Below, piece by piece: positions 22,706-54,029 of a stretch of DNA of 64,000 nt (the stretch's first letter is position 1; every line of letters starts with the position of its first letter). The stretch spans positions 65,519 to 129,518 of the forward strand of contig JAFGKK010000002.1 of NCBI GenBank assembly GCA_016928575.1, read 5' to 3'. Under the pieces are notes generated by a model that did no database searches, had not been told where the DNA came from, and saw only the letters and a program-made list of their open reading frames with translations. The translations under genes were made by a program, and so were the position numbers. This DNA comes from Anaerolineales bacterium. GTDB lineage: Bacteria > Chloroflexota > Anaerolineae > Anaerolineales > RBG-16-64-43.

Positions 22706-22782
22706 CCCTTGTCATTTTAATTTATATTGGAAGGAGTGACGGCGTCGGTGACGTGTTTTGCTTTGTACCAGATGCATGAAAA

Positions 22783-22887
22783 AATCCTCCACCCGCGCCA
22801 GTTGGTTATGCTCGTGGTACGAGATCGTCGGCGTGCGGATGACGCAATGCGCGAGCAACTTCCCCGTTTAGTGCATATCTTCAGTTG
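22783..22887 (-). pseudogene. rsmI-derived gene fragment (codons ~32-67 equivalent)
   Basis: Ungapped manual alignment to rsmI 21768-21850 (offset 1017 nt) gives 72 of 83 identical positions. It translates as STEDMH*TGKLLAHCVIRTPTISYHEHNQLARVEDFF, against RsmI AAEDTRQTAKLLAHYGIRTPRISYHEHNKLARMEEIL. Confidence 0.8.
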
Positions 22888-23389: not shown

Positions 23390-23526
23390 TATTCACCGTT
23401 CATTCCTTCCAATGATTTCTGCATGAGAATATATAGATTGGTTTGAATAAACAGGAAAGAAAGGATCCTCAGTTAAGGAAACATTTGGCATGGAAATATT
23501 CCATCCCGGCGCAAACAAATATATAT

Positions 23527-24595: not shown

Positions 24596-24982
24596 ACCAA
24601 TATTATTGAATCCTCCCGCTGAATACCGCGCAGCTTGCTGCGCGGTAGTTCCTTTTTTGAAAAAGCCATTCCGCCTCGATGTGTTTTCCAATGAGGCCGG
24701 AGTAGGGGCTTCCCAGACTATCTCCCTAAGGATCTTGACTCTGGGGGATAAACGCGGAAGTCGAATTCTCATGGCGCGATGGAGGATTTCCGGATCCCGT
24801 GGTGCGCGCACAGGTGACCGGGGAAAACCCGCCGACTCGGCGGCAGACATTCCCTTTCAGAGGAATGGGCAAAACCGATAAGCGGGGAAGGGCCGCAGCG
24901 TTTGCTGGATGCGGCCGGTGCAGATTGTCTCAAAAGTGTAATAACTCCGCGAAAGGCAATCCATTCCAGTATAATTTTCCAC

Positions 24983-25687
24983 ATGGCGGATATTTTGCTG
25001 GTGGAAGATGCGATCGAGTTGGCCGATAGGGTGGCGCGGGAGCTATCGGCGGAGGGCTACCGGGTTCTCCGCGCGGCCGACGGTGTGGCGGCATTGCAGC
25101 TATTCGGTGCCTCGAAGCCGGACCTGGTCATCTTGGATTGGATGCTGCCCGGCCTCGACGGATTGGAAGTGCTGCGGCGGATCCGGCAGGATCCGGATTG
25201 CGCCGTGCCGGTGCTGATGCTGACGGCGCGCAGCGAGGAGACCGACCGCGTGGTCGGGTTGGAGCTCGGCGCCGACGACTACCTCACCAAGCCTTTCGGA
25301 ATGCGCGAGCTGATTGCACGGGTGCGAGCGCTGTTGCGGCGCGTCCAACGGATCCAGTCCCTGATCCACGCCGACCGGATCGACGACGAGACCGAAATCC
25401 AATACGGCCCCTTCCATCTGATTCCGGCCGGGTTCCATGCGGACTGCGGCGGCGAAACCCTCGCCCTGACCCGCACGGAATTCAAATTGCTGCACCTCAT
25501 GCTGCGCAATCCCGGACGGGTGTTCAGCCGCGAGTATCTGATCGATTCGGTGTGGGGCGAACAACATGTGCCGGGCGACCGCTCCGTGGATAATACCGTT
25601 TCCCGCCTGCGGAAGAAAATCGGCGGCCCGGCCGATGCGATCGAATCGGTTTGGGGCGTCGGATACCGGTTGAGACCGCTGGAATGA
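24983..25687 (+). CDS. OmpR/PhoB-family response regulator
   Basis: Receiver motifs ILLVEDA, DLVILDWMLPGLDG and LMLTAR. Winged-helix output LTRTEFKLLHLML..VDNTVSRLRKKI..GVGYRL. The start is moved to ATG 24983. Confidence 0.9.
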   Translation: MADILLVEDAIELADRVARELSAEGYRVLRAADGVAALQLFGASKPDLVILDWMLPGLDGLEVLRRIRQDPDCAVPVLMLTARSEETDRVVGLELGADDYLTKPFGMRELIARVRALLRRVQRIQSLIHADRIDDETEIQYGPFHLIPAGFHADCGGETLALTRTEFKLLHLMLRNPGRVFSREYLIDSVWGEQHVPGDRSVDNTVSRLRKKIGGPADAIESVWGVGYRLRPLE

Positions 25688-27264
25688 ACCGCCTCTTCCC
25701 CGTCCGGTTTTTTGGAGCGGCGCGCTCCTGGCAGGCTATGCTGGAGGTTGTCGCCTGCAGCTTGGCGTATATTCTCATCGTGGTTCTCCTGACGCCTTAT
25801 CTTTCCGGCGAGACCCTGGCGGTGGCCCTGCTCTTATTAAACCCATTGTGTGCGATATGGTGCGCCTTGCGGATCCGGTTTATCGGGGGGAGAAGAATGA
25901 TTAAGGCTCTGCGTGAAATTGCGCTTCCTGTCCTCGTCCAGTTGGCCGTTATCCTGGGCGTCGTTTTACCGGTATCTTTCGCGGGAGGCGCCGCCCTGGA
26001 CATTTGGCGACGCATTCAAGAAGGCGCCCCGATCACGTCCTTCTATTTTTCACTGCTTTTTGTCGGACCGAGTTATTTCATTCTCCGGCTGGGCGTGTGG
26101 TTTCTCCGTTTGTGGAGCCGATATCAACGCCGGTATATGGTTCTTTCGCTGACCAACGCCATTCTCAGTACGGCCCTGATCGGGGGGGCGATTTTTATGT
26201 TCTTCATCGCAATCCTTGGGGTTTTTACCAACTCTTCCAGCGCGAATCTGGGAAACGAATCGGGGTTGGGAATTTGGATATTCGCCAATTTGCAGCTGCT
26301 CGTATCGTTGTTCATGGGTTCCTTTGTTTCGGTTTTCTGCCTGATCGCCGGATTGCTCCCGTTCGCGGCGGTGTTTTCCTTCTGGGTCGCGCGCCGTACG
26401 ACCAAGCGGCTGACCGAGTTAGCCGGCGCCGCGGATTTAATGCGGCAGGGGCGTCTCGACGCGCGCGTGACGGTTTCGGGCGAAGATGAGGTGGCCCGCT
26501 TGCAGGCCGGTTTCAATTCGATGGCATCGGATTTGGAACGGACACTCAGGGATTTGAAAACCGAACGCGACCGCGTGAGTGGCTTGCTGAAATCGCGCAA
26601 GGAACTGATCGTCGATATCTCCCACGACCTGCGCACTCCGGTGGCGACCCTGCGCGCAATGCTGGAATCGGAACAGAAATCCGGATCGCCGTCCGCCGCC
26701 TCGGCGCAGACTCTGGCGACCATGGACCGTGAAATCATACGTCTTCAGGGCCTGATCGATGAATTGTTTGCGGTCTCCCAGGCGGAAGTTGACAGGTTGA
26801 CGATCGATCCGCAACCGATACAGATCGGCGAAGTGGTCCGGCAGCGCGTGGAAGCGGCTGCCCCCCTCGCTTGGCAGACCGGCCGCGTATCGGTCGGCGC
26901 GGATATCCTCCCGGATCTTCCCCCGGCCGTAGCGGACCGCGCACGGCTCGAGCAGGTTCTTTCCAACCTGTTGCAGAATGCCATCCGGCACACGCCGCCC
27001 GGCGGACTGGTGGTCGCCGGTGTGTCCCCGGAACCCGATTTCCTGCGCATTGAAGTCAAGGATACGGGCGGGGGGATAGAACCGGAAGAGCTTCCGCACA
27101 TTTGGGACCGGTATTACCGGGGCAGGCACGAGGCCGAAGATAACGGCGCCGGAATCGGTCTGGCACTCGTTAAAGAATACACAGAAGCGATGGGCGGTAC
27201 CGTCGCGGTTAAAAGCGAACCGGGCAGGGGCAGCGTCTTCACGCTGTTCCTGCCGCGAGCGTAA
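25684..27264 (+). CDS. Sensor histidine kinase (multi-TM, HAMP, HisKA, HATPase_c)
   Basis: ATGA overlap with the regulator stop. H-box ISHDLRTPVATL. N-box LLQNAIRHTP. G-boxes KDTGGGI and GAGIGLALV. About 6 N-terminal TM helices. Confidence 0.9.
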   Translation: MNRLFPVRFFGAARSWQAMLEVVACSLAYILIVVLLTPYLSGETLAVALLLLNPLCAIWCALRIRFIGGRRMIKALREIALPVLVQLAVILGVVLPVSFAGGAALDIWRRIQEGAPITSFYFSLLFVGPSYFILRLGVWFLRLWSRYQRRYMVLSLTNAILSTALIGGAIFMFFIAILGVFTNSSSANLGNESGLGIWIFANLQLLVSLFMGSFVSVFCLIAGLLPFAAVFSFWVARRTTKRLTELAGAADLMRQGRLDARVTVSGEDEVARLQAGFNSMASDLERTLRDLKTERDRVSGLLKSRKELIVDISHDLRTPVATLRAMLESEQKSGSPSAASAQTLATMDREIIRLQGLIDELFAVSQAEVDRLTIDPQPIQIGEVVRQRVEAAAPLAWQTGRVSVGADILPDLPPAVADRARLEQVLSNLLQNAIRHTPPGGLVVAGVSPEPDFLRIEVKDTGGGIEPEELPHIWDRYYRGRHEAEDNGAGIGLALVKEYTEAMGGTVAVKSEPGRGSVFTLFLPRA

Positions 27265-28344: not shown

Positions 28345-28487
28345 AGCCGCAAGGAAGCAACCATAAACCGCAACAGGAAGATGGACCGTTGGTTTACGGT
28401 CCATCTTCCTGTTTTTTACTAACCGTTGTATTTGCTCAGCCTGATGCAAGTATTGAAAAAATCGCCCCCCAAAAAACGCCCAATTAT

Positions 28488-29503
28488 TCATCCCCTCATC
28501 CCATCCTCCCATTCCTGTCCGGAGCACCTTTCCCGATCGGGGCGAGGGAAGGCGGCGTGAGGATGGACGAGGGGGAGGCTGAGCAGATACAATTGATCCA
28601 GACATTCACTCTTCAAACCGCCCATTGACCGCTTGGAACATGCATTTGCTTTTGGGGCGCGAAAAGGCGTCTTCCGCACCAGGATTCCGGTATGAAAAGC
28701 AATACCGGTGAACCGGTTTCCGGACTTGCTGTCACGATAGCGAAGAAGATATTTCGGCTTTTCTCCCCAGGCAGTGGCCTCCCGCAATTGCTGCGTTGTC
28801 CATTCGTCGATGGGGGAATCGATGACGGCGACATGGATAATTCGGCGCCTTATAAGTTTCATAATGACAAAGATGTAGAGGGGCCGAAACAACCAGTCGT
28901 ATACGGTCGTGAAATCGCGCGCCCAAATATCACCGGCATGATTCCGGATGAAAGTGCCCCAATTGTGGTTCGAATATGGGATCTTCCGCATTCTATGGAT
29001 GTATTTCTGAATGGTTCGTTTACTCAATGTGATGCCCAATTTGAGGAGCCCACCCCGGATCCGCTCGGCGCCCCAAAGACGATTTTCCCAAACCATTTGT
29101 CGAAGAACGCCGATGGTTTCTGGAGATATTCTCGGTTTCTTCCGCCAATTCCTGGATATATGCCGCCGGAAAAGACGAAAGAGATTGCGATGCCGGCGGA
29201 GGAGCGTATCCGGTTGAATAATGTAAAGAGCCTGGTCCCAGGACTTGGTGCAGCGAGCCAGAAGAACAAGGCGATCCGGTCCTTATGGGTCAGCCGCGGC
29301 CGTTTCACTAATCGGTGGAGAACGATTACTTGGTGACGCAGTGTGGCATTTTCCACCAGCAAGTCGGCTTTGCTTCGGGATACATCCGCAAGGGCACCCA
29401 AGGCGAGTGAGACGGTTGTGGTTTCATCCAACCCTTGATTTGATGGTGAATCCATTGCAAAATTGAAACCCGGAACGGGCAGGGCGCAAGGTTCATTTCG
29501 CAC
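28488..29503 (-). mobile_element. Decayed IS transposase (HTH + rve/integrase-core type), multiply frameshifted
   Basis: Two overlapping frames carry pieces of one protein. The N-terminal part reads ..LLVENATLRHQVIVLHRLVKRPRLTHKDR. The C-terminal part reads ENRLWGAERIRGGLLKLGITLSKRTIQKYI..DFTTVYDWLFRPLYIFVIMKLIRRRIIHVAV... The intervening region matches in neither frame. I found no terminal inverted repeats. Confidence 0.7.
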
Positions 29504-29702: not shown

Positions 29703-31901
29703 CTACATCAGAAGCCTGATTAATTCCAGGGCGCCGGAGGCGGCGAAGTTGATCGAGAAGTCTTTGCCCAATTCGGCGAGGATTTTCCAATATTTATTCT
29801 TGAACTTCGGCAGGACTCCTTTGATCTCCTTTAAATTTTCCAAACCACCTGCAGAAAGCCATTCATCCGCTTTTTGTTGATCTTCTTCATCGCCCGGCTC
29901 GGCAATAACCTCCTGCTGGATCCATCGCGCCAACGATGCAGAGAAAAGGACATACCGCCCATCGCGTTCCTCCACCATGCCGCGCTTGCCGAGCGCATCC
30001 AGGTCGTGGAGCGCTCGCGGCCGGAATCCGGAAATCACTTCCCGAGTGGGAATCGTCTTCTGGGAGGGCTTTTGCAATCCCAGGATTAATACCGTCAGAA
30101 GGGTGATTTTTTCACTTTCCGAACAATGTGACCACAGGTAGGAATAATGCGAATCGGCCTGTTGGTCGAAGTTCCGGGAGACAAATTGAATCAACCCTTC
30201 CCCGGAGAGGCCTTGTGTTTTTCCTTCCACCAGGAAATAGCCGGCCATCTGAATGAGAAATGGATAACCGCCTGCAAGATTCCATAGGAAATCGCGTTCG
30301 GCGGCTGCAAGCGCACAATCACTCTGCTTCGAATAGCCGTCGAAAAGCAATTCCACATCGGAACGCGGGAAGGGATACAGGACGACGTTGGAGAAGATGT
30401 TGAAAAACGGGGAGCCTTTGATCTCGTTGGAGTGGCACAGATCGACCAGCTCCCGCCGCGTGGCCGGGATCAGCGCCAAGCCGTGATGGATGGCCAGCGC
30501 CCGCAACCCGCCGAAGAAATCGGCGGTGAAGTTGCTGTTTTGGGTGACGTACTCAAATTCGTCCATCAGCAGAACGGTGGTCAGGTTGCGGTTTTGAGCC
30601 GATTCGAAGAGGTCTTCCAGGTCGAATAAGTCGAACGCGGCTTGTTTGCTGAGTGCCTGCAGGGCCGGCTTCATGCTTTCATCCGCGACGGTTCGCGAGA
30701 TTTTTTCCAGGATGCGCTGCCAGAAGCGCTGGGGGGTAATATCGGTCAGACCCTGGAAATCCACGTAGACAACGCAAAATTTGTCCGGGGTTAACCCAAG
30801 GCCGGCGGCCACTTGGGGATTGGAAAGGTGAGTCAGCAGCGAGGTCTTCCCGATCCGGCGCTCGCCGACGATGGAGGTGCTTTCGTGGGCGCTGGAAAGC
30901 AGACGGTTGACAATCTGGCGGAGTTCCGCCTTCCGCCCGTAAAAGCGCTCCGGTTCGCGGATGGGATTCCCGAACGTAAAGGGGTTTGGCTTCATTCGTT
31001 CTCCAGGATGGACAATGTTTTTTTTCGTTGAGACGCCGGCGGCCATGGAGGCCGTGTGGACGGCGGCCGCTTTTAATGCCTCTCCGAGATCGGAGGCTTT
31101 GTCAAAACGGGATGCGGGATCCTTGGCCAGGGCCCGCTGCAGGATTTCCCCGACGGCGGGGGAAAGGTCCGGCCGGATCGCCGCCAGGGAGGGGACCGGC
31201 TCATGGAGATGCATCATCAAGACCTGCGCCGGCGAATCGGCAGCGAACGGCGGCTGGCCGCATAAAGCCTCAAAGAGAACGATTCCCAGGGAATAGATAT
31301 CGGACCGGGGGCCGATCGCGGCGCCGCCCTCGATCTGCTCCGGACTCATGTAAGTGGGAGTCCCGATGAGCTGGGAGCCAGTGAGCGGGTTCCCGGCTTG
31401 GGAGATCCGGGCGATACCGAAATCGGATAAGTACACCTCGTGGAACTCGTCGAAGAGGATGTTGCCCGGCTTGACGTCGCGGTGGATGATATCGCGGGAA
31501 TGAGCGGCGTCGAGCGCAAGGCCGACCCGTCCGATGATGCGGGTTGCTTCCGGAAGTGAAAACGGGGCACCGATGCGGCTCAGGAGGGAGCCGCCGGCGA
31601 GGTAGCGCATCACCAGGTAGGGTTGCCCCTGTTCCTCGCCGAAATCGTAAACCGGGACGATAGCGGAGTGTTCGAGGGAGGAGAGTATCTTGGTTTCGCG
31701 CAGAAAGCGCTGCTTGAAAACCGGATCCATCAGGAGGATGGGAGGAAGGATCTTTATGGCGACGTCACGGTCGAACTTGGGCTCGCGGGCATGGTAGACG
31801 ATCGCCATGCCGCCGCGTCCGATGACGCCGTGGATCGGATAGCGGCCGATGGATTTGCTTTTGCCCGGAGGGACAATCGGGGTTTCGGAAGAGTTATCCA
31901 T
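29703..31901 (-). CDS. Hanks-type Ser/Thr protein kinase fused to a STAND/ATPase_2-like P-loop NTPase
   Basis: Kinase motifs GRGGMAIV, VAIK, HRDVKPGN, DFG and TPTYMSPE. These are followed by NPFTFGNPIREPERFYGRKAEL, Walker A GERRIGKTS, Walker B VLLMDEFE, a winged-helix-like region and a helical C-terminal tail. Confidence 0.85.
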   Translation of the reverse strand: MDNSSETPIVPPGKSKSIGRYPIHGVIGRGGMAIVYHAREPKFDRDVAIKILPPILLMDPVFKQRFLRETKILSSLEHSAIVPVYDFGEEQGQPYLVMRYLAGGSLLSRIGAPFSLPEATRIIGRVGLALDAAHSRDIIHRDVKPGNILFDEFHEVYLSDFGIARISQAGNPLTGSQLIGTPTYMSPEQIEGGAAIGPRSDIYSLGIVLFEALCGQPPFAADSPAQVLMMHLHEPVPSLAAIRPDLSPAVGEILQRALAKDPASRFDKASDLGEALKAAAVHTASMAAGVSTKKNIVHPGERMKPNPFTFGNPIREPERFYGRKAELRQIVNRLLSSAHESTSIVGERRIGKTSLLTHLSNPQVAAGLGLTPDKFCVVYVDFQGLTDITPQRFWQRILEKISRTVADESMKPALQALSKQAAFDLFDLEDLFESAQNRNLTTVLLMDEFEYVTQNSNFTADFFGGLRALAIHHGLALIPATRRELVDLCHSNEIKGSPFFNIFSNVVLYPFPRSDVELLFDGYSKQSDCALAAAERDFLWNLAGGYPFLIQMAGYFLVEGKTQGLSGEGLIQFVSRNFDQQADSHYSYLWSHCSESEKITLLTVLILGLQKPSQKTIPTREVISGFRPRALHDLDALGKRGMVEERDGRYVLFSASLARWIQQEVIAEPGDEEDQQKADEWLSAGGLENLKEIKGVLPKFKNKYWKILAELGKDFSINFAASGALELIRLLM

Positions 31902-34134
31902 TGGCCCCCAGCAGAAAAACGCCGTTCGGCGTGGCCGCGTAGACGTTGGATTGCGAGTCGATCACGATGGAATAGACAACCGTTGCGCCGAGCAGGCCGT
32001 CGTTAATGGAACCCCAATGAATCCCGCCGTCGAAAGAAACGTACGCTCCTCCGTCCGTGCCGGCATAGATGATTTCAGAATGGAATGGATCCACAGCGAC
32101 CGAGTTGACGAAAAGGCCGCCCAATCCGTCGTTGCTGGGATTCCAGGATCGACAGCCGTCTGCGCTGATAAGAATCCCATCCCCCTTTGTGGCCAGGTAT
32201 AGTCTTTGGGGATCGTCGGAAACGATATCCACAGAGGTAGGAACCGCTTCGGGCTCCAGACCGCAAAGTTGCCAGGAGGCCCCGTTGTCTGTCGAAACGT
32301 AGGCCGGAGAACCGTATCCGGTGATGTCGACGGAATAGATTATTTCCGATGGGGCGGGCGGGAAGTAGAAACGGCCATACGGGATGTCTTCGCCCGTATT
32401 GTGCGCCCAGTTCTGACCCGCGTCCATGGAAATGAATAGGCTCCGATTGGGATCCATGGAGATATCCGATACGAAGAGCGTATCCTCGCGGGAACTGACA
32501 TTCAATAGGACGCCCCTATTCGCGGTATCCACAGGGGCGGGAAGGAAATCCCATGTTGTTCCTTGGTTTTTTGAAATCCGGATTGTCTGTTCATGGGCAA
32601 GGTACAAATCGCCGTTCTTTCCGATGGAAAGCCAATATCGCGGCCATTCCACCTCGTATGAGCCTCCAAAAAAGGGGCTGGCTTGTTGCCACGGAATCCC
32701 CCAATCGGGGGAATGGAAAATATAGCCGTAGGCGTCTTCCGCATAGAGGCTTTCATGGGCCGGATCCGTTTTCAGCTTTATCCGCAGGTTCCCCAAACCA
32801 TTCCCGATCTCCGTCCAGCTGATGCCGGAATCGGAGGAAGACAATAATCCGCCCTCGCCCCCGCCCAGCATGCGTGTCCCATCGACCGAAAATGCAACGG
32901 GTGCACAACACCGCTCCGGCAATGGGTTCCATGACAAGCCTGCATTGGTGGAGGAATACCCGCCGTTCACGCCATGGCAATACATTGTGGATGGATTGGC
33001 CGGGTTGACATATAAAGCGCTGCAGGCGATCTGCGCCAATTCGCTCCAATTCTGCCCGCCATCATCCGAGGCATACAGCCTGTTTTCAGATCCCACAGAG
33101 GATGCATAGAGGATTTCCCGGCCGCTTGGGTCCGAGCCGATGGCCATCGCATAAATGCCGGTTTCTTCCAGGCCGAGACGCGTCCAATTCCCGCCGCCAT
33201 CGGTAGAGTGAAAAACACCTGCCGGGCAATCCGAATCTTCCCGTATTTGAGTGGCGTACAGTTTTCCGTTTACCTGCGGATGCACGAGGAAGGCCCCAAT
33301 GGCCGATGGGCAAGGGGAAAGGCTCGTCTCGTTCCAGGTCGTGCCGCCGTCGTTTGAGTCCATCCAGCCATAATCCGGCGCTGCCAGGAAGATATGTTGG
33401 TTGTCGAACGGATCAATCAACACGGATGTATCACCCGCGTAAGAATTTTCCATCCGCGTGTCGATGGCCTGCCATGCGCCGCCGCCATTCACGGTTTTGA
33501 AGATCAGGTTGGACGGTGTGCCGGCATAAAGCGTTTGCGGATTCTTCGGATCGATTGCCAGCCCGGAAATGCCGGCGAAGCTCAAGCCGTTTTGAATCGG
33601 CATCAGAGTAATGCCGCCGTCGAGGGATTTGTAGATCCCGGCGTTGCGTGTGCCGATGTAGACTACATCCGGATCGTTGGGATCGATAACGATGCTGGTA
33701 ATCTCATCCCGCGAAAATTCCTGGCCGGTGGAAAGCCGTTTCCACCTTAAGGGGATGAGCGTGGATGTGAAAGCAGGGAGAAGTTCGGGCGTGCTGGTGG
33801 AATAGGGTGTTGCGGTAAATGGCGGATTTGTTGACGGCGCCGTCGTTTCAGCAGGAGAAGCGATGCTTGGGGAGAAGGCTTTCAGGCGGGGAGCCGACCA
33901 TACGGCCAATCCGACCAGGGCAACGGCTCCCAACGCCGCCCATGATTTGGGATTGTTGTACCAGCGCTGGCGCTTGAGCCGCACCATCCGGGCCAGCAGC
34001 CGGGAAGTGTCTTTGTAGTTCTCGTCGATGGCCAGGAGTTGCCTGAGCAGATCGCTGGCGCGGTCGTAATCCTTTGCCGATAGGGCGGCCTTGGCTTGGG
34101 TGTACAGGCTTTCCAGTTCTTGGTCGTCAGCCAT
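31894..34134 (-). CDS. Single-pass membrane protein: short TPR-like cytoplasmic head, TM, extracytoplasmic Asp-box (BNR) propeller region
   Basis: The start is moved to ATG 34134 (MADDQELESLY..), which overlaps the upstream stop by 1 nt. TM helix WAALGAVALVGLAVW. I count 13 Asp-box-like motifs (e.g. SNDGGTTW, STDGGGNW, SDDGGQNW). Confidence 0.8.
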   Translation of the reverse strand: MADDQELESLYTQAKAALSAKDYDRASDLLRQLLAIDENYKDTSRLLARMVRLKRQRWYNNPKSWAALGAVALVGLAVWSAPRLKAFSPSIASPAETTAPSTNPPFTATPYSTSTPELLPAFTSTLIPLRWKRLSTGQEFSRDEITSIVIDPNDPDVVYIGTRNAGIYKSLDGGITLMPIQNGLSFAGISGLAIDPKNPQTLYAGTPSNLIFKTVNGGGAWQAIDTRMENSYAGDTSVLIDPFDNQHIFLAAPDYGWMDSNDGGTTWNETSLSPCPSAIGAFLVHPQVNGKLYATQIREDSDCPAGVFHSTDGGGNWTRLGLEETGIYAMAIGSDPSGREILYASSVGSENRLYASDDGGQNWSELAQIACSALYVNPANPSTMYCHGVNGGYSSTNAGLSWNPLPERCCAPVAFSVDGTRMLGGGEGGLLSSSDSGISWTEIGNGLGNLRIKLKTDPAHESLYAEDAYGYIFHSPDWGIPWQQASPFFGGSYEVEWPRYWLSIGKNGDLYLAHEQTIRISKNQGTTWDFLPAPVDTANRGVLLNVSSREDTLFVSDISMDPNRSLFISMDAGQNWAHNTGEDIPYGRFYFPPAPSEIIYSVDITGYGSPAYVSTDNGASWQLCGLEPEAVPTSVDIVSDDPQRLYLATKGDGILISADGCRSWNPSNDGLGGLFVNSVAVDPFHSEIIYAGTDGGAYVSFDGGIHWGSINDGLLGATVVYSIVIDSQSNVYAATPNGVFLLGANG

Positions 34135-37100
34135 TATGTTCCTTCCAGTTTGAATATTCCATAAGGGGTGGACGCGTAGACGTTGGATTGCGTGTCGATC
34201 ACGATGGAGTAGACGACCGTCGCCCCCAGCAATCCATCGTTGATCGGATCCCAGTGTTGGCCTGCGTCGAAAGAGATATACACTCCGCCGTTCGTCCCCG
34301 CATACATGGTCTGAGGGTTGTTCGGATCGATGGCAATGGCATGGGCGAACAAGTTGCGGAGGCCGGTATTCATCCTTGTCCAGGAGAGGCAGCCGTCCGG
34401 GCTCGCCATCACGCCGCCGCCCCGCGTTGCCGCCCAAATCCGTTTACGATCTTGAGGATTGACGGCCATCATGGAGATTGTTTCCGTGAACGCGTCGAGA
34501 TCGCCGGGTGGATTGCAGTTTGACCATGTCTCCCCGGAATCGCTGGACCGATAAGGCGGATAATCTCCTTCATTTCCATAAACATATACGTCGGTATCGG
34601 AACCGAAAAAGAGTGAGATGGTTTCACCCTGCCGGAGCTCATCGGTTGGAAAACCGCCACTCTCCTTCCAGGTGTTTCCCTTATCCAAGGAGATTAAAAT
34701 GCGATTGAAATATGGCAGGTACACCTTCCCGTCGATGGAGGGGTGGGCGGCGACAATTCCTGGCGAAATCGGATCGGGGACACCCGGTAAAGATGCCCAA
34801 TTCTTCCCGCCGTCTTGAGAGCGTAGTAAACCGTTGAAGTCGGACCGGAATAACGTCTGGCCATCCGCGCTGAAGGCCAATCCATAACCCTTCTGGGTTA
34901 ATGGACTCCAATTCTTTCCTTTGTCCGGGGAATAAAAGAGAGGAACACCTGGCCATTCCGTTCGCTGTCCTTGCAGATAGAAGCTATTGGTATCGCCGGA
35001 ATTTTGATTTAGTAATAATTCGGTTCGAAATCCTCCCAAGCCGTCGCTTTTATCCGTCCAGGAACTCCCCCCATCCACTGATTCGTATACTACCTCTCCT
35101 CCCACAAGTATTGTGTCGGAAGCACCGGGTTTAATGGCGATCTGAATGATCGTTCCATTCGTCCAGGGGAGCTTTTGCCAGTGTTTTCCCGCATCAATGC
35201 TTTTGAAAAGATCGTTGGTTTCTTTACCACAAACGATCATTCGACCATCCTGAGGGGAAATGGCACAGGCCGTAAACACACCGGTGAGCGGGTGGGTCCA
35301 AGTTGAGCCGCCGTCGGAGGAAACATGAACCCCGTCGCGGGCATAGGCAATAATGGTGTTGCCATCCCGGCTGATCTGGAGATTTTCTCCCCAGCCCAGA
35401 TCTTCGATTTTCGGAGAGGCCAATGACCAAGTGTCTCCGCCGTCCGTGGATCGGAAAACGCCGCCATCCGATGCTCCCAACCCGAAATTCGAGACGAACA
35501 AGGTCTGCGGATCAACCGGCGACTCGACAATCCAACCCGCGTTGGGAGGGCAATATTTCCCGCCGTCACAGAAGGTCGACGGGCGCCAGGAATCTCCTCC
35601 GTCGAAGGATTGATAAACGTTGCTGTTGAGATAATAGAGGTTGTTGGAATTCGTGGGGGAGATGGTGACTCCGCTGAACCAAGTGAAACCCCACCCGATA
35701 TTCGCGGAATTCACGGATTTCCAGTTCGCACCCCCATCCGTGGTTTTATAGATCCCGCCGGGCAACACGCTGGCATAAAGGATCTGCGGATTATTCGGGT
35801 CGATGGCCAGGGTTGAGATCGCGGCGCTTTCCAGGCCGGCGTGCGCGGGAAACCACGAAGCCCCTCCATCGATCGTTTTATACACACCGGCATCCGCCGT
35901 CCCGGCATAGATGATCCCCGGATCCTCCGGATCAAATTTTATCGCCGTGACTTTGCTGCGGGTTAAAAACTGTCCCGCATTCAGCCGGATCCATTGAAAC
36001 GGGATCGGCGTCGGTGGAAGAGTGGGCAAGGGCATTGCGGTTACGGTGCGGGTCGGCGATGCGCCCAACAGGTTGGAGAGGGACGTCGGTTGTGTAGAGA
36101 CGGCGGTCGGGCTTGTCGACGACGGCACCATCCTTTGCAAAGCCAACCCACCCAGCACCAGGATTGCCATTGCTCCCACGCCTCCCCAAAGCCACCGCGA
36201 CTGCCAGAATTTGCGTGTTTTCTGGCGCAGCTCAACCGCCTGGGCCAATATTTGCGAAGCGTCTTTGTAGTCCGGGTTATTAATGACGATGCTTTTCATC
36301 AGGCCGATGGCTTTGGCGTAATTCTTTTTCGCCATTGCCCGCTGGGCTTCGGAATACGTCTGCGCCAGGGATTGGGCGCTTTCCACTTTACCCATCTCCC
36401 CGCGAATCATTTCCGCGTCATCGGGCGCAAGCAATAAAAGCTCGTTCCATGCGGTCAAGGCGTCGCTGAATTTTTCGGCCTTCGATAAACTTTGCGCTTT
36501 TGATTGCAGGGAATTTCGCTGCGCTTCGCGCTGCTGGATCTGATTTGCGGCCAGCCTTTTTTGGACGCTCTCGTCATCCGGCATTAAGGCCAGATATTCC
36601 TTCAGGGATGCGATGGCCGCTTCCCAGTTTTTTTCCGCCTCCATTTGTTTCGACCGCGCCCGGAGGATTTCCAAGCGGGCGGTTTGCAATAATTGACGGA
36701 CTTCCGCCAACCGCTTTTGAAGCGCGGCGTCCTCGGGAGCCAATCGAAGCGCTTCTTCCAACGTGGCCGCCGCGGAATCCAGGTTTTTCGCAGATATCTC
36801 CTTCTCGGATTTTGCGACGAGACTTGCCAAAACCTTTGCTTTTTTCTCCGACTGGACGGACTGAACCCGTTCGATGAGGATCGGATCTTCGGGGGTGTAT
36901 TTCAACGCTTCGGCAAATGCGGACAAGGCTTGCTCATCCCGCCCTTCCTTGAGCGCTTTTTCGGCTTGTTGGCGCTGGATTTCGGCCAAGCGTTGGCGCG
37001 CCTCGGTATGCTCCGCGTTGATGGACAATACGCGTTGAAAGGATTGGGTTCCTTCGCGGATCCGGCCCCGGTCCGCGGCGGCGTTGCCGATCGCCAGATG

Positions 37101-38474
37101 CGCTTCACACAACCCGGACCGGGCCGCAACGTCTTCGTCGTCAATCGCCAATGCCTTCTCAAACTCGACCACCGCCTTCTCATAGGATTTCTGCTCCATA
37201 TACACCAGGGCGATGTTGACCAGGGCCTGGGCATTTTCCGGGGCGACCGCGAGCGCTTCCTGGAAACTTTCAATGGCCTTTTCGTAAACGCCGCTGTCTT
37301 TGAACTCCATCCCAATCTCGATATAGCGGTTGGCGATGGGATTTATCTCGGTCAGTTCCTCGCGCACTTGCTCCAGGGGGCGGTTTTTGCACAACCACAG
37401 TTTGAGCAGGTGGATGACAAAGTGATTGTCCGGAGTGAGCACATCTTTCTCGCGCAAGTGGAGCAAGGCGGATGTCAAATTGGAGTCGCTGAAACGGACG
37501 CGCTGCTTGCGCAGAAAGTCGGCAAGGCCGCGGCTGTCCGCCGGACCGAGCTGTGCGAGGGCCGCCAGGGACCATTTTTCCAGATCCGCGGCCTCGTCCC
37601 AGAGGAATTTTAAATTGACCGTTCCGCGTTCCACCACATCGTCCAGAACGGCTTCGACATCCGATTTGCCGATTTCCCGTTGGCCCGTCCGCTGGCAGCG
37701 CGCGAATAATTCATGACAGATCAGCTGGGTGAAGTATGGATGACCGGAAGCGATCTGATAAATGGAATGGGCGGACGGACGCTGGTAATTAATCAGGCCT
37801 TCCACCGGCAGTGTGATCAGGTTGCGCGATTCATCCTCGGAAAGAAAGCTGATCTTTTTGTACAGGGCCGTTTTAAAAAAATCGGTATACGCGGCCTGCA
37901 TGTTTTCCAGTTTCCGTCCCGAGGAACCGATGGAGAATATGAAATTAAGCCCCTGTTGTTCCAGCAGCCGGCGCAGATAATCGATCAGCGGGCGGGCCAG
38001 CGCTTCCCGGACCTCCGATTCTTCCAAATTGTCAAATTCGTCAAATGTCAGCAGCAGCGAATGGTCGCCAAGAATGGGCTTTAAGCCGGGGATAAATTGA
38101 TGTTCGAAATATTCCAAATCGGCAGTAAAGAGGCCTTTTTCCGGCAACGGAACGTCCAAGTTATGGGCTTGCTTGAGCCCCCGGACAATTTCACGCGCGA
38201 GCCACCATAAAAAACGGTCCAGGGTCGTGTGCGTACGGCCTTGAAAGTCGAAGAAAACCGGGATAAAACGCTCCGGCAGGCGGTTTCCCAGTTGCTTGAG
38301 GACGGATGTCTTCCCCACCCGCCTTTGACCGTGGAGAACCAAGATGTGGTCGGCATACCGTCCGGAAAGGTTATTCCGGATCCAATCAAAGACATCCTCC
38401 CGGCCGAAGAACATCCTGGCTTCGGTAACGGGTGCGCCGGCAATATATGGGTTTACAATTTCGTCCATATTCAC
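34134..38474 (-). CDS. Transmembrane STAND/ATPase_2-like NTPase with TPR array and extracytoplasmic Asp-box (BNR) propeller region
   Basis: 1446 aa. N-terminal NPYIAGAPVTEARMFFGRE, Walker A GQRRVGKTS and Walker B LLLTFDEFD. About 350 aa of TPR-like repeats. TM helix WLWGGVGAMAILVLGGLAL (nt ~36133-36195). 13 Asp-box-like motifs (TIDGGASW, TTDGGANW, STDGGDTW..). Start is GTG 38474 or ATG 38468. Confidence 0.85.
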   Translation of the reverse strand: MNMDEIVNPYIAGAPVTEARMFFGREDVFDWIRNNLSGRYADHILVLHGQRRVGKTSVLKQLGNRLPERFIPVFFDFQGRTHTTLDRFLWWLAREIVRGLKQAHNLDVPLPEKGLFTADLEYFEHQFIPGLKPILGDHSLLLTFDEFDNLEESEVREALARPLIDYLRRLLEQQGLNFIFSIGSSGRKLENMQAAYTDFFKTALYKKISFLSEDESRNLITLPVEGLINYQRPSAHSIYQIASGHPYFTQLICHELFARCQRTGQREIGKSDVEAVLDDVVERGTVNLKFLWDEAADLEKWSLAALAQLGPADSRGLADFLRKQRVRFSDSNLTSALLHLREKDVLTPDNHFVIHLLKLWLCKNRPLEQVREELTEINPIANRYIEIGMEFKDSGVYEKAIESFQEALAVAPENAQALVNIALVYMEQKSYEKAVVEFEKALAIDDEDVAARSGLCEAHLAIGNAAADRGRIREGTQSFQRVLSINAEHTEARQRLAEIQRQQAEKALKEGRDEQALSAFAEALKYTPEDPILIERVQSVQSEKKAKVLASLVAKSEKEISAKNLDSAAATLEEALRLAPEDAALQKRLAEVRQLLQTARLEILRARSKQMEAEKNWEAAIASLKEYLALMPDDESVQKRLAANQIQQREAQRNSLQSKAQSLSKAEKFSDALTAWNELLLLAPDDAEMIRGEMGKVESAQSLAQTYSEAQRAMAKKNYAKAIGLMKSIVINNPDYKDASQILAQAVELRQKTRKFWQSRWLWGGVGAMAILVLGGLALQRMVPSSTSPTAVSTQPTSLSNLLGASPTRTVTAMPLPTLPPTPIPFQWIRLNAGQFLTRSKVTAIKFDPEDPGIIYAGTADAGVYKTIDGGASWFPAHAGLESAAISTLAIDPNNPQILYASVLPGGIYKTTDGGANWKSVNSANIGWGFTWFSGVTISPTNSNNLYYLNSNVYQSFDGGDSWRPSTFCDGGKYCPPNAGWIVESPVDPQTLFVSNFGLGASDGGVFRSTDGGDTWSLASPKIEDLGWGENLQISRDGNTIIAYARDGVHVSSDGGSTWTHPLTGVFTACAISPQDGRMIVCGKETNDLFKSIDAGKHWQKLPWTNGTIIQIAIKPGASDTILVGGEVVYESVDGGSSWTDKSDGLGGFRTELLLNQNSGDTNSFYLQGQRTEWPGVPLFYSPDKGKNWSPLTQKGYGLAFSADGQTLFRSDFNGLLRSQDGGKNWASLPGVPDPISPGIVAAHPSIDGKVYLPYFNRILISLDKGNTWKESGGFPTDELRQGETISLFFGSDTDVYVYGNEGDYPPYRSSDSGETWSNCNPPGDLDAFTETISMMAVNPQDRKRIWAATRGGGVMASPDGCLSWTRMNTGLRNLFAHAIAIDPNNPQTMYAGTNGGVYISFDAGQHWDPINDGLLGATVVYSIVIDTQSNVYASTPYGIFKLEGT

Positions 38475-39456
38475 TCACTTTTATCCTTTGCACGGGTCGC
38501 GATTGGTTCGGACTCTTTATCTATTCATAGCAACTGTTAAGCCATACGTTGCCGCCGGGATCTGTCCCCGGCCAGTGAAAGCCTTCGCGCAACCAAGCGT
38601 CAAAGAAAACCCGCTTCTGGGCGCCGATGTTGCCTCTACTGGCGATACCCAATCGAATCAATTCTCTTGATCCTGTGTCTCTCCTATCAACCATCCCGCG
38701 GTGTGTAAGGAAGTATACCTCTATAGGCGACTGGAGAAAAACGCGAAATGCAGGTCGCCGTACAATCCATCCCCTCCGGAATATCACTCCCCCCAACCAA
38801 ACCCATCCCAGATGCTTTACTTATCCGTTGGAATAATTGGTCGGTAAGGGGTTTGGAACCCGGGAATAGCTGTGGCAGGGTCCCCCAAAAAATGCAACCG
38901 ACCTCATTTCTCCGGATCCGCGAATGGCTGGACGGTCAGGACGGTTTGGAATGCGTTGATCCTTGCCTGGATGGGGGCGTTCTTGAATTGAAATAGCCAC
39001 AAAATTAACAGGCCAATCGTTTCGGATGCGGAATGGAAGGATGATCCGGACATTCCCTATTACAGACCTTCATGAACCGTTCGCAAACTGCGGTTAGCTT
39101 ATCCTTCATTCTGTAAATTCAGTCCGATGGGGAGCGATCTTCTTTATCCTGCCGTCAATCGCCCATGGATCGCATTGAACTCCATCCGCTTTCCGCTCCT
39201 CAATTCCCGTCCGCAGGCAACGAGCGGCCCGGTTCCATCCATCCCATTCCGCCCCCCCGTGATGGCTGCCGGCTGCAGGGTGAATCCGCCATCCCGCCCC
39301 CCCGCTTCCCATGCCACGGGATGCGGGGGAGGATGGCAGGGGCAGGGCGGGATGGCGCCCGGCGCCGCGCTGGGGCGATGCTTCCGCGGCCCGCCCCACG
39401 GCCCGGGCCGATTTCACAATCATCGCCCGGCGGCCGCTCGATGGAAAAATCTAAAT

Positions 39457-40359: not shown

Positions 40360-40514
40360 GGATTTTTTTCGCGCAATTTTCCGGCCACCGAAGCGGAAAT
40401 GCGGTCCCGGCTACTCCGCTTCAGAACCAGAGTATTGGGATTGATCTATAATTGGGCATATTCCCTGCTTTTACAAGCGTGGCAAGCCCTAAGAAACGAC
40501 AACACCGGAGCGCT

Positions 40515-42497
40515 ATGGACCAACCACAACTGAACTGGATCGCCAACTTCATCTGGGGAATCGCCGACGACGTGCTCCGCGACCTCTACGTGCGCGGCAA
40601 GTACCGCGACGTGATCCTGCCGATGACGGTGCTGCGCCGCTTCGACGCGGTGCTCGAGCCTACCAAGCAGGCCGTGCTCGATATGAAGAAGAAGCTCGAT
40701 AAGGCGAAAATTACCAACCAGGATCCGGCGCTCCGCCAGGCGGCCGGGCAGGGTTTTTACAACACCTCCAAATTCACCCTGCGCGATTTAAAGGCCCGCG
40801 CCAGCCAGCAGCAGCTCCGGGCTGATTTCGAAGCCTACCTCGGAGGCTTCTCGCCCAACGTCCAGGAGATCCTCGAAAATTTCGAGTTCCGCAACCAAAT
40901 TCCAAGGCTCTCGAAGGCCGATGCGCTGGGCACGCTGATCGAGAAGTTCCTCTCGCCCGAAATCAACCTCAGCCCGAACCCGGTCCTGAATTCCGACGGC
41001 TCGGAAAAGACACCCGGCCTCGACAACCACGCCATTGGGACCGTATTTGAAGAGCTGGTGCGGCGCTTCAACGAGGAAAACAACGAGGAGGCCGGCGAGC
41101 ACTGGACCCCGCGGGACGCGGTGCGGCTGATGGCGAACCTGATTTTCCTGCCGATCGCCGACGAAATCGAATCCGGGACCTACCTGCTCTACGACGGCGC
41201 GCTCGGCACCGGCGGCATGCTGACCGTGGCGGAAGAGACGCTCAAGGAGCTGGCCGGGAAGCACGGCAAGCAGGTCGCCACGCACCTCTACGGACAGGAG
41301 ATCAACTCCGAGACCTACGCCATCTGCAAGGCGGACCTGCTGCTCAAGGGCGAGGGCGAGGCGGCCGACAACATCGTCGGCGGCCCCGAGTATTCCACGC
41401 TCTCCAACGACGCCTTCCCCTCGCGCGAATTCGACTTCATGCTCTCCAACCCGCCGTACGGAAAAAGCTGGAAAAGCGACCTGGAGCGGATGGGCGGCAA
41501 GGGCGGGATCAAGGACCCGCGCTTTGTCATCGAGCACGCGGGGGATCCGGAATACTCGCTGATAACCCGCTCGAGCGACGGCCAGATGCTGTTCCTGGCG
41601 AATATGCTTTCCAAGATGAAGCACGGCAACAAGCTCGGCAGCCGGATCGCCGAGGTGCACAACGGCTCATCGCTGTTCACCGGCGATGCCGGGCAGGGCG
41701 AGAGCAACATCCGCCGTTGGATCATCGAGAACGATTGGCTGGAGGCGATCGTCGCCCTGCCGCTTAATATGTTCTACAACACCGGCATCGCCACCTACAT
41801 CTGGGTGATTGGCAACCGCAAGCCCAAACACCGCGCCGGCAAGGTGCAGCTCATCGACGCCACGCAGTGGTACAAGCCGCTGCGTAAGAACCTGGGCAAG
41901 AAGAACTGCGAGCTCTCGCCTGAAGATATCGAGCGGATTTGCGACGCATTCCTGCGGTTCGAGGAAACTGAGCAATCGAAAATCTTCCCGAACGCCGCCT
42001 TCGGCTACTGGAAGGTGACGGTCGAACGCCCGCTCCGGTTGAAGGGCATCGACCCCGAAAAGGAATATTCGCCGAAGGAAATCAAGGCGCTCAAAGAAAG
42101 TTCCGAGCGCGCCGAGGATGCGCCGCCGGTCATCCGCAAGATTCATAGGAAGGGAACCGCCGCCGATCCGCTGCGCGGATTGTTCCCGGTGACCATCGGC
42201 GGAAAAGCGGCCGTCGTCGAATACGAGCCCGACCCGGACCTGCGCGACACCGAGCAGGTGCCGATGCTGGAAAAGGGCGGCGTCGAGCCCTTCATCCGCC
42301 GCGAAGTGCTTCCGCACGCCGCGGACGCCTGGATCCTCGCCGAGAGCGTCAAGACCGGATACGAGATCAGCTTCACGCGCTACTTCTACAAGCCGCAGCC
42401 GCTGCGCACGCTGGAGGAAATCCGCACCGACATCCTGGCGCTGGACAAGGAAACCAAGGGTCTCTTGGATGAGATCATCGGGGGCAATGGGGCATGA
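40515..42497 (+). CDS. hsdM: Type I restriction-modification system, DNA methyltransferase subunit M
   Basis: HsdM N-terminal domain NWIANFIWGIADDVLRDLYVRGKYRDVILPMTVLRRFD. AdoMet motif YDGALGTGGML. Catalytic NPPYG (MLSNPPYGKSW). The start is moved to ATG 40515. Confidence 0.92.
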   Translation: MDQPQLNWIANFIWGIADDVLRDLYVRGKYRDVILPMTVLRRFDAVLEPTKQAVLDMKKKLDKAKITNQDPALRQAAGQGFYNTSKFTLRDLKARASQQQLRADFEAYLGGFSPNVQEILENFEFRNQIPRLSKADALGTLIEKFLSPEINLSPNPVLNSDGSEKTPGLDNHAIGTVFEELVRRFNEENNEEAGEHWTPRDAVRLMANLIFLPIADEIESGTYLLYDGALGTGGMLTVAEETLKELAGKHGKQVATHLYGQEINSETYAICKADLLLKGEGEAADNIVGGPEYSTLSNDAFPSREFDFMLSNPPYGKSWKSDLERMGGKGGIKDPRFVIEHAGDPEYSLITRSSDGQMLFLANMLSKMKHGNKLGSRIAEVHNGSSLFTGDAGQGESNIRRWIIENDWLEAIVALPLNMFYNTGIATYIWVIGNRKPKHRAGKVQLIDATQWYKPLRKNLGKKNCELSPEDIERICDAFLRFEETEQSKIFPNAAFGYWKVTVERPLRLKGIDPEKEYSPKEIKALKESSERAEDAPPVIRKIHRKGTAADPLRGLFPVTIGGKAAVVEYEPDPDLRDTEQVPMLEKGGVEPFIRREVLPHAADAWILAESVKTGYEISFTRYFYKPQPLRTLEEIRTDILALDKETKGLLDEIIGGNGA

Positions 42498-54015: not shown

Positions 54016-54029
54016 AAGGGATCAATGCT

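Follow-up and report, generated by a model that had tools for sequence, protein, structure and literature searches.

Switches of the STAND class (signal transduction ATPases with numerous domains), among them the nucleotide-binding oligomerization domain (NOD)-like receptors (NLRs), are understood as intracellular devices, and surface sensing in bacteria is ascribed to histidine kinases, receptor Ser/Thr kinases, and chemoreceptors. The subject of this account is a three-gene locus in a stretch of 64,000 nucleotides (nt) from an Anaerolineales bacterium (contig JAFGKK010000002.1, positions 65,519 to 129,518; the whole stretch is referred to as the window). The minus strand of the window carries three head-to-tail open reading frames (ORFs): g1 (34134-38474), which encodes the putative sensor STAND receptor (component A); g2 (31894-34134), which encodes an ATPase-less co-receptor paralogue of 746 amino acids (aa) (component A'); and g3 (29703-31901), which encodes the putative helper STAND, a 732-aa protein with an N-terminal Ser/Thr kinase domain (component B). 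Surveys of genomes and metagenomes revealed that the trio is one variant of a widespread, co-inherited Anaerolineae/Chloroflexota operon. The domain arrangement suggests, with slightly better than even confidence, that the proteins form a sensor/helper STAND pair that signals from the outside to the inside of the cell, with the kinase as the output at the window locus.

The closest published description is a predicted two-gene nSTAND2 operon whose products were proposed to form a hetero-multimer (Kaur, Burroughs, Iyer, Aravind, eLife 2021, PMC8195603, Fig. 6C). One of the two NTPases of that operon has eroded NTP-binding motifs, and it is this inactive protein that bears the GT4 or HEPN effectors (PMC8195603). 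The window locus is similar in that it encodes two related STAND NTPases, one of them with variable effectors, and g3 is a clear member of the nSTAND2 family (PF20702). However, neither of the defining features of the published operon, the inactive NTPase and the GT4/HEPN effectors, was found here. The Walker motifs of g1 and g3 are both intact and invariant within their families, and the N-terminus of B is either empty or occupied by a TIR or Pkinase domain, with neither GT4 nor HEPN present. In addition, g1 belongs to the ATPase_2/AAA_22 type and continues into tetratricopeptide repeats (TPRs), a transmembrane (TM) helix, and an ectodomain, whereas the published operon contains no membrane receptor; and ATPase-less co-receptor genes are interposed between the two STAND genes of the window operon.

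A second group of related proteins, the STAND-FGS/C-type-lectin "antigen sensors", consists of single chains with the order effector-NTPase-lectin, which are mostly cytoplasmic and often diversified by diversity-generating retroelements (DGRs) (PMC8195603, section 7; PMC10907252). TIR or S/T kinase domains are among their N-terminal effectors, and they are enriched in multicellular bacteria (PMC8195603; PMC10907252). The combination of a STAND module with a lectin-fold sensor is common to these proteins and to the present operon, and some g1 homologues carry FGE-sulfatase or Lectin_C ectodomains. In contrast to the antigen sensors, the sensor and the effector reside here on two different STAND proteins, and the sensor is put outside by a TM helix. 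No reverse transcriptase turned up among the scanned ORFs of the window, in a scan that was not aimed at one.

In the NAIP-NLRC4 system and in plant sensor/helper NLR pairs, an effector-less, ligand-binding STAND recruits a homologous, effector-bearing STAND. The window proteins would divide the labour of sensor and helper in the same manner, although the NLR pairs are wholly intracellular, are built from NACHT or NB-ARC modules with leucine-rich-repeat (LRR) sensors, and are not homologous to the trio at the family level. Plant receptor kinases have paralogues that keep the ectodomain, the TM helix, and a juxtamembrane stub, but lack the cytoplasmic signalling domain, and the relation of g1 to g2 mirrors that of a full receptor to such a receptor-like protein; in plants, however, the kinase is part of the receptor, whereas here the receptor carries a STAND ATPase and the kinase is found on a separate, soluble partner. 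The Mycobacterium tuberculosis protein PknK consists of an N-terminal Hanks kinase, a MalT-like NTPase, and its own TPR sensor. It shares the succession of kinase and STAND-type NTPase with g3, which, in contrast, lacks sensor repeats of its own; the g3 gene instead lies behind the gene of another STAND protein, the transmembrane sensor.

As the original prediction had anticipated, searches of PADLOC, NCBIfam, and the literature (with thin coverage of subscription journals) returned no named system with the architecture of the trio. The NCBIfam scan yielded generic kinase, TPR, and BNR matches only. With PADLOC, the 25 best of 36 matches to g3 all fell within the kinase region (aa 13-317), where the PD-T4-6 model (E down to 5e-88, aa 13-317 only) was equalled by the generic PknB-type model NF033483 (E 1e-87). 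Of all PADLOC models, those of catalogued defence STANDs included, g1 matched only PDC-S01 (E 6e-4 and 2e-3, over ~45 aa) and g2 matched none. Since both collections gave generic matches only, the trio is not a catalogued defence system. The parts belong to known kinds of domains, and it is their arrangement, a trans-membrane STAND ATPase with co-receptors and a dedicated helper, that appears to be new, no description having been found in these searches.

Conservation of the operon

The operon consists of A (an ATPase_2-type NTPase, TPRs, a TM helix, and a swappable ectodomain), zero to five copies of A', and B as the last gene. More than 500 homologues of g1 were found, nearly all of them in Anaerolineae/Chloroflexota metagenomes and metagenome-assembled genomes, and more than 1000 homologues of B. 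The four g1 homologue loci that were inspected all have the same layout, a receptor gene with between one and four g2-type genes behind it and an nSTAND2 gene after these, all in one orientation. A genome survey anchored on the nSTAND2 module of B covered 41 loci from species-representative genomes, 28 of which had at least 5 kb of upstream sequence; a g1-type NTPase-TPR gene accompanied B on the same strand in about 26 of these 28, upstream of it except at L039, where two such copies lie downstream. At L010 and L021 the flank stops within the array, with the g1 gene partly visible or present in an overlapping locus (L005). A metagenome survey anchored on the NTPase of A covered 17 loci with at least 7 kb of downstream sequence, and B was found downstream of A in 13, while at least two of the other four stop within A' genes. 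Co-conservation elsewhere, on which the original prediction had made its case depend, was thus observed for the A-B pair in both surveys, with the number of A' copies varying from zero to five.

The genes of the operon are tightly linked. In the window, the stop codon of g1 and the start codon of g2 share 1 nt (TAATG, 34132-34136, minus strand), and g2 and g3 overlap by 8 nt (ATGGATAA, 31894-31901, minus strand), confirming the three coupled ORFs and both overlaps as they had been described from the sequence. Elsewhere, the nSTAND2 gene usually overlaps the last receptor gene by 1, 4, or 8 nt. An independent Logan assembly (L001) covers g1 and g2 and extends 147 aa into g3, with identical junctions. 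The minimal, two-gene version of the operon occurs in the cultured bacterium Pelolinea submarina MO-CFX1, where the two genes overlap by 4 nt and lie between thrS and an alpha-amylase gene. The largest array seen (L070, 319-20065) has four BNR co-receptors in a row, a DUF1080 receptor of 1767 aa, a fifth co-receptor, and a kinase-nSTAND2 gene. At three loci of one Anaerolineales lineage (L006, 15264-16528; L007, 9736-11000; L008, 9803-11067), the nSTAND2 match is divided into two segments in different frames, of which only 332 aa are annotated; the split is put down to a sequencing error common to all three or to a frameshift that has left a pseudogene.

Receptor, co-receptor, and helper proteins

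All coordinates of parts of the three proteins given in this section refer to the minus strand. g1 begins either at GTG 38474 (1446 aa) or two codons later at ATG 38468 (1444 aa), which is the start that NCBI chose for P0001, an identical protein entered as [quoted passage not shown]. Pfam assigned ATPase_2/AAA_22 to aa 22-247 (scores of 33.9 and 40.7, respectively), TPR families to aa ~380-600, and Sortilin-Vps10, BNR, and PSII_BNR to aa 838-1415; PF20702 (nSTAND2) gave no match to g1 at E up to 0.01. The cytoplasmic NTPase, or NOD-like, module (aa 1-370; 37365-38474) contains the Walker A motif GQRRVGKT at aa 49 (38330-38307) and the Walker B motif LLLTFDEF at aa 140 (38057-38034). The Walker A and B motifs are invariant within the A family and within the B family, each with its own sequences, and the g1 NTPase shows a mean column identity of 81% across 118 homologues. 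The module is followed by a cytoplasmic TPR/helical array (aa 371-750; 36225-37364), which was delimited by TPR families, TPR matches in the PDB, and alignment with g2, and which ends in a conserved juxtamembrane unit (..NPDYKDASQILAQAVEL..) that is also present in g2. A TM helix (aa 761-779, WLWGGVGAMAILVLGGLAL; 36138-36194; Kyte-Doolittle value of 1.86 over 19 aa) leads to the extracytoplasmic part (34137-36137), composed of a Pro/Thr/Ser-rich linker (aa 780-~825) and a BNR/Asp-box tandem propeller (aa ~826-1446), as indicated by Pfam, the Asp-boxes, and colinearity with the modelled ectodomain of g2. Pfam, motifs, and hydropathy thus confirmed the proposed order of NTPase, TPR-like repeats, hydrophobic helix, and Asp-box region. 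Two of the figures attached to that order held in part. The ~350 aa of TPR-like repeats are matched by Pfam TPR families up to ~aa 600, and the rest, up to the TM helix, is helical and has no Pfam assignment; the 13 Asp-boxes proposed for each of g1 and g2 are reached only when degenerate copies are included, the strict motif ([ST]xDxGxx[WFYL]) occurring 12 times in g1 and nine times in g2.

The last 755 aa of g1 align colinearly with the g2 protein (32% identity, E 3e-105). The alignment starts at the juxtamembrane helical unit, which is the last TPR-like unit, takes in the TM helix and the linker, and extends to the end of the ectodomain; the Pfam matches of g2 are to BNR-type families only. 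As had been claimed for it, g2 corresponds to the receptor with the ATPase and the greater part of the TPR array removed. In an AlphaFold2 (AF2) model of g2 (pLDDT 85.9), three helices at the N-terminus precede a helix at aa 62-85, and a disordered linker connects the latter to two propellers. Together with the g1 alignment, the model defines a cytoplasmic helical unit (aa 1-61; 34134-33952), a TM helix that is also indicated by hydropathy and by the bias of Lys/Arg (K/R) residues (aa 62-85; 33951-33880), a linker (aa 86-123), and the tandem propeller (aa 124-746; 33765-31897). A direct-repeat scan of g1 against g2 found no recent gene conversion; the conserved 3' ends of the two genes share 73% DNA identity.

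The membrane topology was assigned by hydropathy, the positive-inside rule, and the composition of the linker. A single hydrophobic segment is present in g1; the 15 residues that precede it include 5 K/R, compared to 1 on the other side. Exactly one hydrophobic segment was found at the same place in 113 of 120 g1 homologues, with a mean of 4.75 K/R in the 15 aa before it compared to 1.04 after it. In the g2 family, the segment is present in 50 of 51 members, with 5.2 K/R before and 1.5 after, and Pro, Thr, and Ser make up 49% of the next 40 residues. Because the ATPase needs cytoplasmic ATP and a single TM helix separates it from the propellers, the propellers are expected to be outside. These data support a type-II (N-in, C-out) orientation for g1, with the predicted ATPase and TPR array inside and the lectin-type ectodomain outside, and, with the AF2 model of g2, they uphold the original prediction of a TM helix with an outside-facing propeller.

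The nearest relatives of the ectodomain were sought by sequence and by fold. A profile of the g2 family matched xyloglucanases of glycoside hydrolase family 74 (GH74) best among PDB entries (E 1.9e-47), and the best 25 PDB matches of the g2 model in Foldseek were all GH74 chains (best E 3e-27, TM-score ~0.5, 16-17% identity). Since GH74 tops both the profile and the Foldseek matches, the ectodomain is predicted to be a GH74-like pair of seven-bladed propellers. Like GH74 xyloglucanases, it would comprise two tandem seven-bladed Asp-box propellers of ~620-700 aa; the identity to GH74 is, however, only 16-17%, and g1 and g2 differ from these enzymes in being anchored in the membrane by an N-terminal TM helix. 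Alignments of the g2 family to GH74 chains by hidden Markov models (HMMs) were repeat-wise, out of register, and not colinear, and the positions of the catalytic Asp residues are not readable from them. The blade-1 motif is YIGTRNAG in g2, and the g2-family pattern Y.GT.NAG is a variable consensus without a conserved Asp. The corresponding GH74 motif is presumably YARTDIGG, holding a catalytic Asp. Judging from this motif, conservation of the GH74 catalytic aspartates in g1 and g2 looks unlikely. Periplasmic propeller sensors of Bacteroides hybrid two-component systems were also among the Foldseek matches of the g2 model, at ranks 29-50. These glycan sensors (BT4663, BT3049, BT4673) resemble g1 in having an outside tandem propeller, a TM helix, and a cytoplasmic signalling module; they differ in that their Reg_prop propellers are not BNR/GH74-like (TM-scores of 0.2-0.3) and their output is a histidine kinase with a response regulator.

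The main receptor keeps its cytoplasmic half, but its ectodomain is swapped. Ectodomains of the BNR, DUF1080/3-keto-disaccharide hydrolase, Lectin_C, FGE-sulfatase, Laminin_G_3, and Bmp types were all observed, the BNR type in ~94 of the 120 listed A homologues, and the main receptor and its co-receptors may bear unlike ectodomains (L006-L008, L070). The median identity of the homologues to the window proteins is 73% for the A NTPase, 61% for the B nSTAND2 module, 54% for the cytoplasmic unit of A', 50% for the TPR array, and 35-37% for the ectodomains. Sequence variation within the propeller falls in the middle, and there is next to none in the N-terminal strand or in the last blade (..INDGLLGATVVYSIV..). 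The last blade, with the pattern ..DGG.Y.S.D.G..W..INDGLLGATVVYSIV.D..SNVYAATP.G.F.L, occupies aa ~1385-1446 of g1, aa ~685-746 of g2, and positions 1-162 of L050, and is kept in distant homologues, while the remainder of the ectodomain is only ~35% identical among g1, g2, and those homologues. This blade may serve as a conserved interface or as a membrane-proximal base. A Pkinase protein with BNR/Sortilin-type domains (P0356, 1235 aa), which matches 99% of the length of g2 with 29% identity, looks like a conventional receptor kinase that makes use of this sensor, and supports a sensing role for the BNR ectodomain.

The g3 protein is identical to a 732-aa NCBI entry, P0121, named "protein kinase [Anaerolineales bacterium]". 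Pfam assigned Pkinase to aa 23-266 (161.7 bits) and nSTAND2 (PF20702) to aa 341-599 (88.2 bits, cut-off 24). All motifs of the Hanks-type kinase domain (aa 23-290; 31032-31835) are intact, namely GRGGMAIV (aa 28), VAIK (aa 47), HRDVKPGN (aa 140), DFG (aa 160), and SPE (aa 186). The nSTAND2 module (aa 305-732; 29706-30989), with the Walker A motif GERRIGKT and the Walker B motif TVLLMDEF, comprises a nucleotide-binding domain (NBD), a helical domain, and a winged helix, and ends in a helical tail whose sequence is conserved (LPKFKNKYW...), as delimited by PF20702, homologues, AF2, and Foldseek. In the AF2 model, the module consists of a beta-alpha core, a helical domain, and a winged helix of H-H-E-E-H order. 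Its nearest structural neighbours in Foldseek are the ATPase_2 archetypes 2qen and 2fna, followed by ORC/Cdc6 and NLRC4/NLRP3; by sequence, no relative of the module was found in the PDB (best E 0.35). The possibility that the C-terminal tail of B is an amphipathic membrane anchor was dropped, as a hydrophobic-moment scan did not rank the tail highly.

The tripartite NOD of STAND proteins (NBD, helical, and winged-helix domains) is found in the g3 model, and g1 aligns to the same module over 312 columns. Comparison of the A and B family alignments with hhalign gave a probability of 97.3% (E 2e-11) over these columns, which include the nucleotide-binding, helical, and winged-helix parts, and BLASTP aligned the first ~100 residues of the two modules at 34% identity. 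By these alignments, the A and B ATPases are paralogues. Both N-terminal domains for which a P-loop fold had been claimed proved to be P-loop NTPases of the AAA+/STAND type, and the Pkinase match, the motifs, and the hhalign homology bore out the fusion of a motif-complete Hanks kinase to a second NTPase of the same kind.

The search for homologues of the nSTAND2 module returned 1073 proteins, of which the best 120 were listed; these are 60-71% identical to the window protein over the full 430 residues, and the family alignment has a mean column identity of 73%. Most of the listed proteins are bare modules of 428-432 aa starting with MNPFTFGNPI. A TIR domain is present at the N-terminus of ~12 of the 120 (~600 aa), and the window protein is the only one of them with a kinase. 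An exhaustive search of 1.8 billion cluster representatives yielded the kinase-nSTAND2 protein P0363 (725 aa, 50% identical to g3), whose gene, at L050, overlaps by 1 nt with a preceding gene that ends in the conserved last propeller blade. At L070, a DUF1080-ectodomain receptor and a BNR co-receptor are followed, again with a 1-nt overlap, by a 743-aa kinase-nSTAND2 protein that is 51% identical to g3. In all three cases, the kinase-nSTAND2 gene directly follows a BNR ectodomain gene with an overlap of 1 or 8 nt. More distant Pkinase-nSTAND2 proteins of 710-746 aa (P0392, P0435, P0444, P0497) are only 31-34% identical in the NTPase part, and the one such locus that was inspected, L051, has no receptor genes. 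The suggestion that the kinase-STAND protein is the likely output therefore stands in part: it recurs in two other lineages with the same gene order, but it is a rare variant, most B proteins being bare.

The history of the kinase fusion was considered by pairwise identities. The window kinase is 42% identical to the other fused kinases, which rank 37-47 among its matches, and it is no closer to them than to unrelated kinases; the window NTPase part shares 71% identity with unfused B proteins and only 57-60% with the fused ones. A single ancestral fusion is disfavoured by these values. Since the fused kinases are not mutual nearest relatives and the NTPase is nearer to unfused partners, it looks more likely that kinases were acquired at this site of B more than once. 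The top relatives of g3 in the search of cluster representatives are P0361 (1598 aa) and P0362 (1536 aa). In both, a STAND-type NTPase match comes after four kinase domains in tandem, and P0361 also bears an N-terminal EAD9, an adaptor of predicted conflict systems in multicellular bacteria.

A candidate sensor/helper mechanism and its alternatives

The order effector-NOD-repeat, in one chain, is not found in either STAND protein of the window: g1 has a NOD and TPRs without an effector, and g3 has a kinase and a NOD without repeats. It is this division of NOD-repeat (g1) and effector-NOD (g3) over two proteins that gives the locus its likeness to a sensor/helper pair, in which A would be the effector-less sensor and B the sensor-less helper. 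In the proposed mechanism, an extracellular ligand would bind to the ectodomains of A and A' and alter the clustering or the conformation of the receptors. Glycans or glycoconjugates are the most likely candidates, because all of the alternative ectodomains are lectin-type, carbohydrate-related, or solute-binding folds. The ligand-induced change would free the cytoplasmic NOD-TPR module of A, and ATP-bound A might then nucleate the co-oligomerization of B, by the logic of NAIP/NLRC4 and of the plant sensor/helper NLR pairs. The N-terminal domains of B would be brought together by this assembly, leading, at the window locus, to trans-autophosphorylation of the Ser/Thr kinase and phospho-signalling; in the TIR variants of B, assembly would switch on NAD+ cleavage. 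The A' copies could act as co-receptors or as decoys that widen or tune the ligand specificity, as receptor-like proteins do for plant receptor kinases.

Several observations weigh against this scheme or limit it. The ligand, the direction of signalling, the contact between A and B, and the kinase substrates are all deductions from sequence, and the proposal of a glycan ligand derives entirely from fold classes. The characterized proteins with GH74-like folds are enzymes. The model of B is of moderate quality (pLDDT 74), and the P-loop region is modelled with low confidence. An N-terminal effector is missing from most B proteins, and at the loci inspected B is not followed by any conserved extra gene; for these two reasons, activation of a kinase by proximity may be a special case. 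Nevertheless, the four findings named beforehand as decisive against the idea, namely an unsuitable topology, a lack of co-conservation, an N-terminal fold other than that of P-loop NTPases, and membership in a named family, were each looked for, and none was obtained. The view of the locus as a STAND switch wired across the membrane to an external sensor is thus supported as an interpretation, in which the direction and the function are presumed.

The operon could instead be an anti-phage or anti-invader STAND/NLR system, in which a phage or a competitor at the cell surface would be sensed by the outside propellers, and the helper would unleash a kinase or TIR activity that causes abortive infection or growth arrest. 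This is considered unlikely, although it retains some weight. A TIR or kinase domain N-terminal to a STAND module occupies the typical effector position of conflict systems (PMC8195603), but ~88% of the listed B proteins have no effector. The g3 kinase domain scores high against the PD-T4-6 and MADS6 kinase models of PADLOC, but these matches concern the generic kinase domain only, and g1 and g2 have no significant match to a defence model. The sensor domains are swappable and fast-evolving, and the FGE and C-type-lectin variants recall the STAND-CLec antigen sensors (PMC10907252); the cytoplasmic modules, in contrast, are unusually conserved for immune genes, with the 73% (A) and 61% (B) median identities holding across genera. 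The window trio lies in low-GC DNA beside an insertion sequence (IS) remnant, a Type I restriction-modification (R-M) system with DarG, and a NERD protein, whereas other loci lie near housekeeping or carbohydrate genes (smpB, thrS, alpha-amylase, GH1/GH38, NAD synthase). Moreover, the antiviral STANDs characterized so far detect phage proteins intracellularly.

A role in self or kin recognition, or in cell contact, has also been weighed and appears quite improbable. The STAND pair would then report the engagement of the ectodomains by a neighbouring cell or a sheath polymer in filamentous Anaerolineae. The system is almost confined to the Anaerolineae/Chloroflexota, many of which are filamentous, a locus may hold as many as five A' copies, which have diverged from one another, and variation in the propellers is concentrated on their central surfaces, the N- and C-terminal blades being conserved. 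Fungal STANDs act in allorecognition, an analogy that has been drawn for bacterial STAND sensors (PMC10907252). The lectin-type alternative ectodomains, however, suit the sensing of glycans equally well.

Only a slim chance is given to an inside-out, structural, or enzymatic role, in which the ATPases would govern the display, clustering, or activity of surface GH74-like propellers in adhesion, sheath formation, or polysaccharide processing, under regulation by the kinase. GH74 xyloglucanases are the nearest relatives of the ectodomain by sequence and fold, and the g1 repeats just reach the cut-off of the NCBIfam "F510_1955 family glycosylhydrolase" model (175.7 vs 175); the GH74 HMM matches are, however, repeat-wise rather than colinear, and blade 1 reads YIGTRNAG in g2 and is variable in the family (with the position of the GH74 Asp presumed). 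Glycoside hydrolase genes are found near the operon in several genomes, but the same cytoplasmic module also bears non-enzymatic lectin folds. Most B proteins have no output domain, yet the TIR and kinase fusions mark B as the output side. Finally, a chance neighbourhood of the genes, or an assembly or annotation artefact behind the kinase-nSTAND2 fusion, which might be suspected because the source is a metagenome-assembled genome and the exact g3 sequence is missing from the contig index, is practically excluded by A-B synteny over dozens of genomes, by the Logan assembly that reproduces g1, g2, and the start of g3, by the identical NCBI protein P0121, and by two other kinase-nSTAND2 genes (50-51% identical) that follow BNR ectodomain genes in the same order.

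If the sensor/helper reading is correct, a STAND ATPase, one TM helix, interchangeable lectin-type ectodomains, and a homologous helper would together constitute a further route of trans-membrane signalling in bacteria. They would also provide a bacterial parallel to the sensor/helper NLR pairs and the receptor/co-receptor sets that are otherwise known from plants and animals. A bolder extension, which must be regarded as tentative and falls well short of an even chance, is that the operon represents a Chloroflexota-wide class of transmembrane NLR-like receptors, the first STAND/NLR switch gated by an extracellular ligand, with co-receptor paralogues that resemble plant receptor-like proteins and a helper whose plug-in effector slot is empty or filled by a TIR or a kinase, and which would serve surface immunity or kin recognition in filamentous bacteria. 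The sensor/helper model is directly testable, because the minimal version of the operon is present in a cultured organism, P. submarina MO-CFX1.

Genomic surroundings of the window locus

The GC content is 0.53-0.59 over the trio compared to 0.62-0.71 in the outer flanks, which bears out the AT-richer setting that had been described. The trio is part of a lower-GC block of the window (22-56 kb), which contains troughs at 22001-24000 (0.44) and 52001-56000 (0.43-0.48) and is flanked by core genes (Lon and RpoC upstream, a SNF2 helicase downstream). For several of the trough ORFs, neither Pfam nor PADLOC gave a match. Upstream of g1, a weak sigma-70-like promoter match (TTGATA-18-GAGAAT; 38661-38690, minus strand) was found by consensus only, and such sites are rarer in the region than in shuffled versions of it.

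The neighbouring IS remnant was recovered as two ORF fragments in different frames at 28488-29503 (minus strand), which resemble a frameshifted integrase-core transposase and have no Pfam match at E up to 1e-3. Between the IS remnant and two small membrane-protein-like ORFs sits a terminator-like hairpin (28372-28413, plus strand) with a perfect 18-bp stem, a 6-nt loop, and a following T-run; no other hairpin of this kind in the region comes close to it in strength. Farther along, an OmpR-type response regulator and a HAMP/HisKA histidine kinase (24902-27264, plus strand) are separated from the trio by the IS remnant. A functional link between this two-component system and the trio was rejected; because the pairing is absent at every homologous locus inspected, the two are probably unrelated.

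On the other side of the trio, a Type I R-M operon (40452-49281) encodes HsdM (40452-42497), HsdS (43183-44535), and HsdR (46084-49281). A DarG-like macro-domain protein (44972-46252; PADLOC DarG, E 5e-136) is embedded in it, as is a 230-aa ORF (42494-43186) with a weak IS200-like match. The R-M operon, with the DarG-like gene, and a NERD protein span 40452-52074. The defence island that had been said to adjoin the trio is thus present here, but it is particular to this genome and is not a general context of the operon. Far from this island, in a high-GC core region of the window (3420-5150, plus strand), a 576-aa protein carries a Schlafen AlbA_2 domain and an N-terminal match to the Ppl-like model of PADLOC (E 8e-20).

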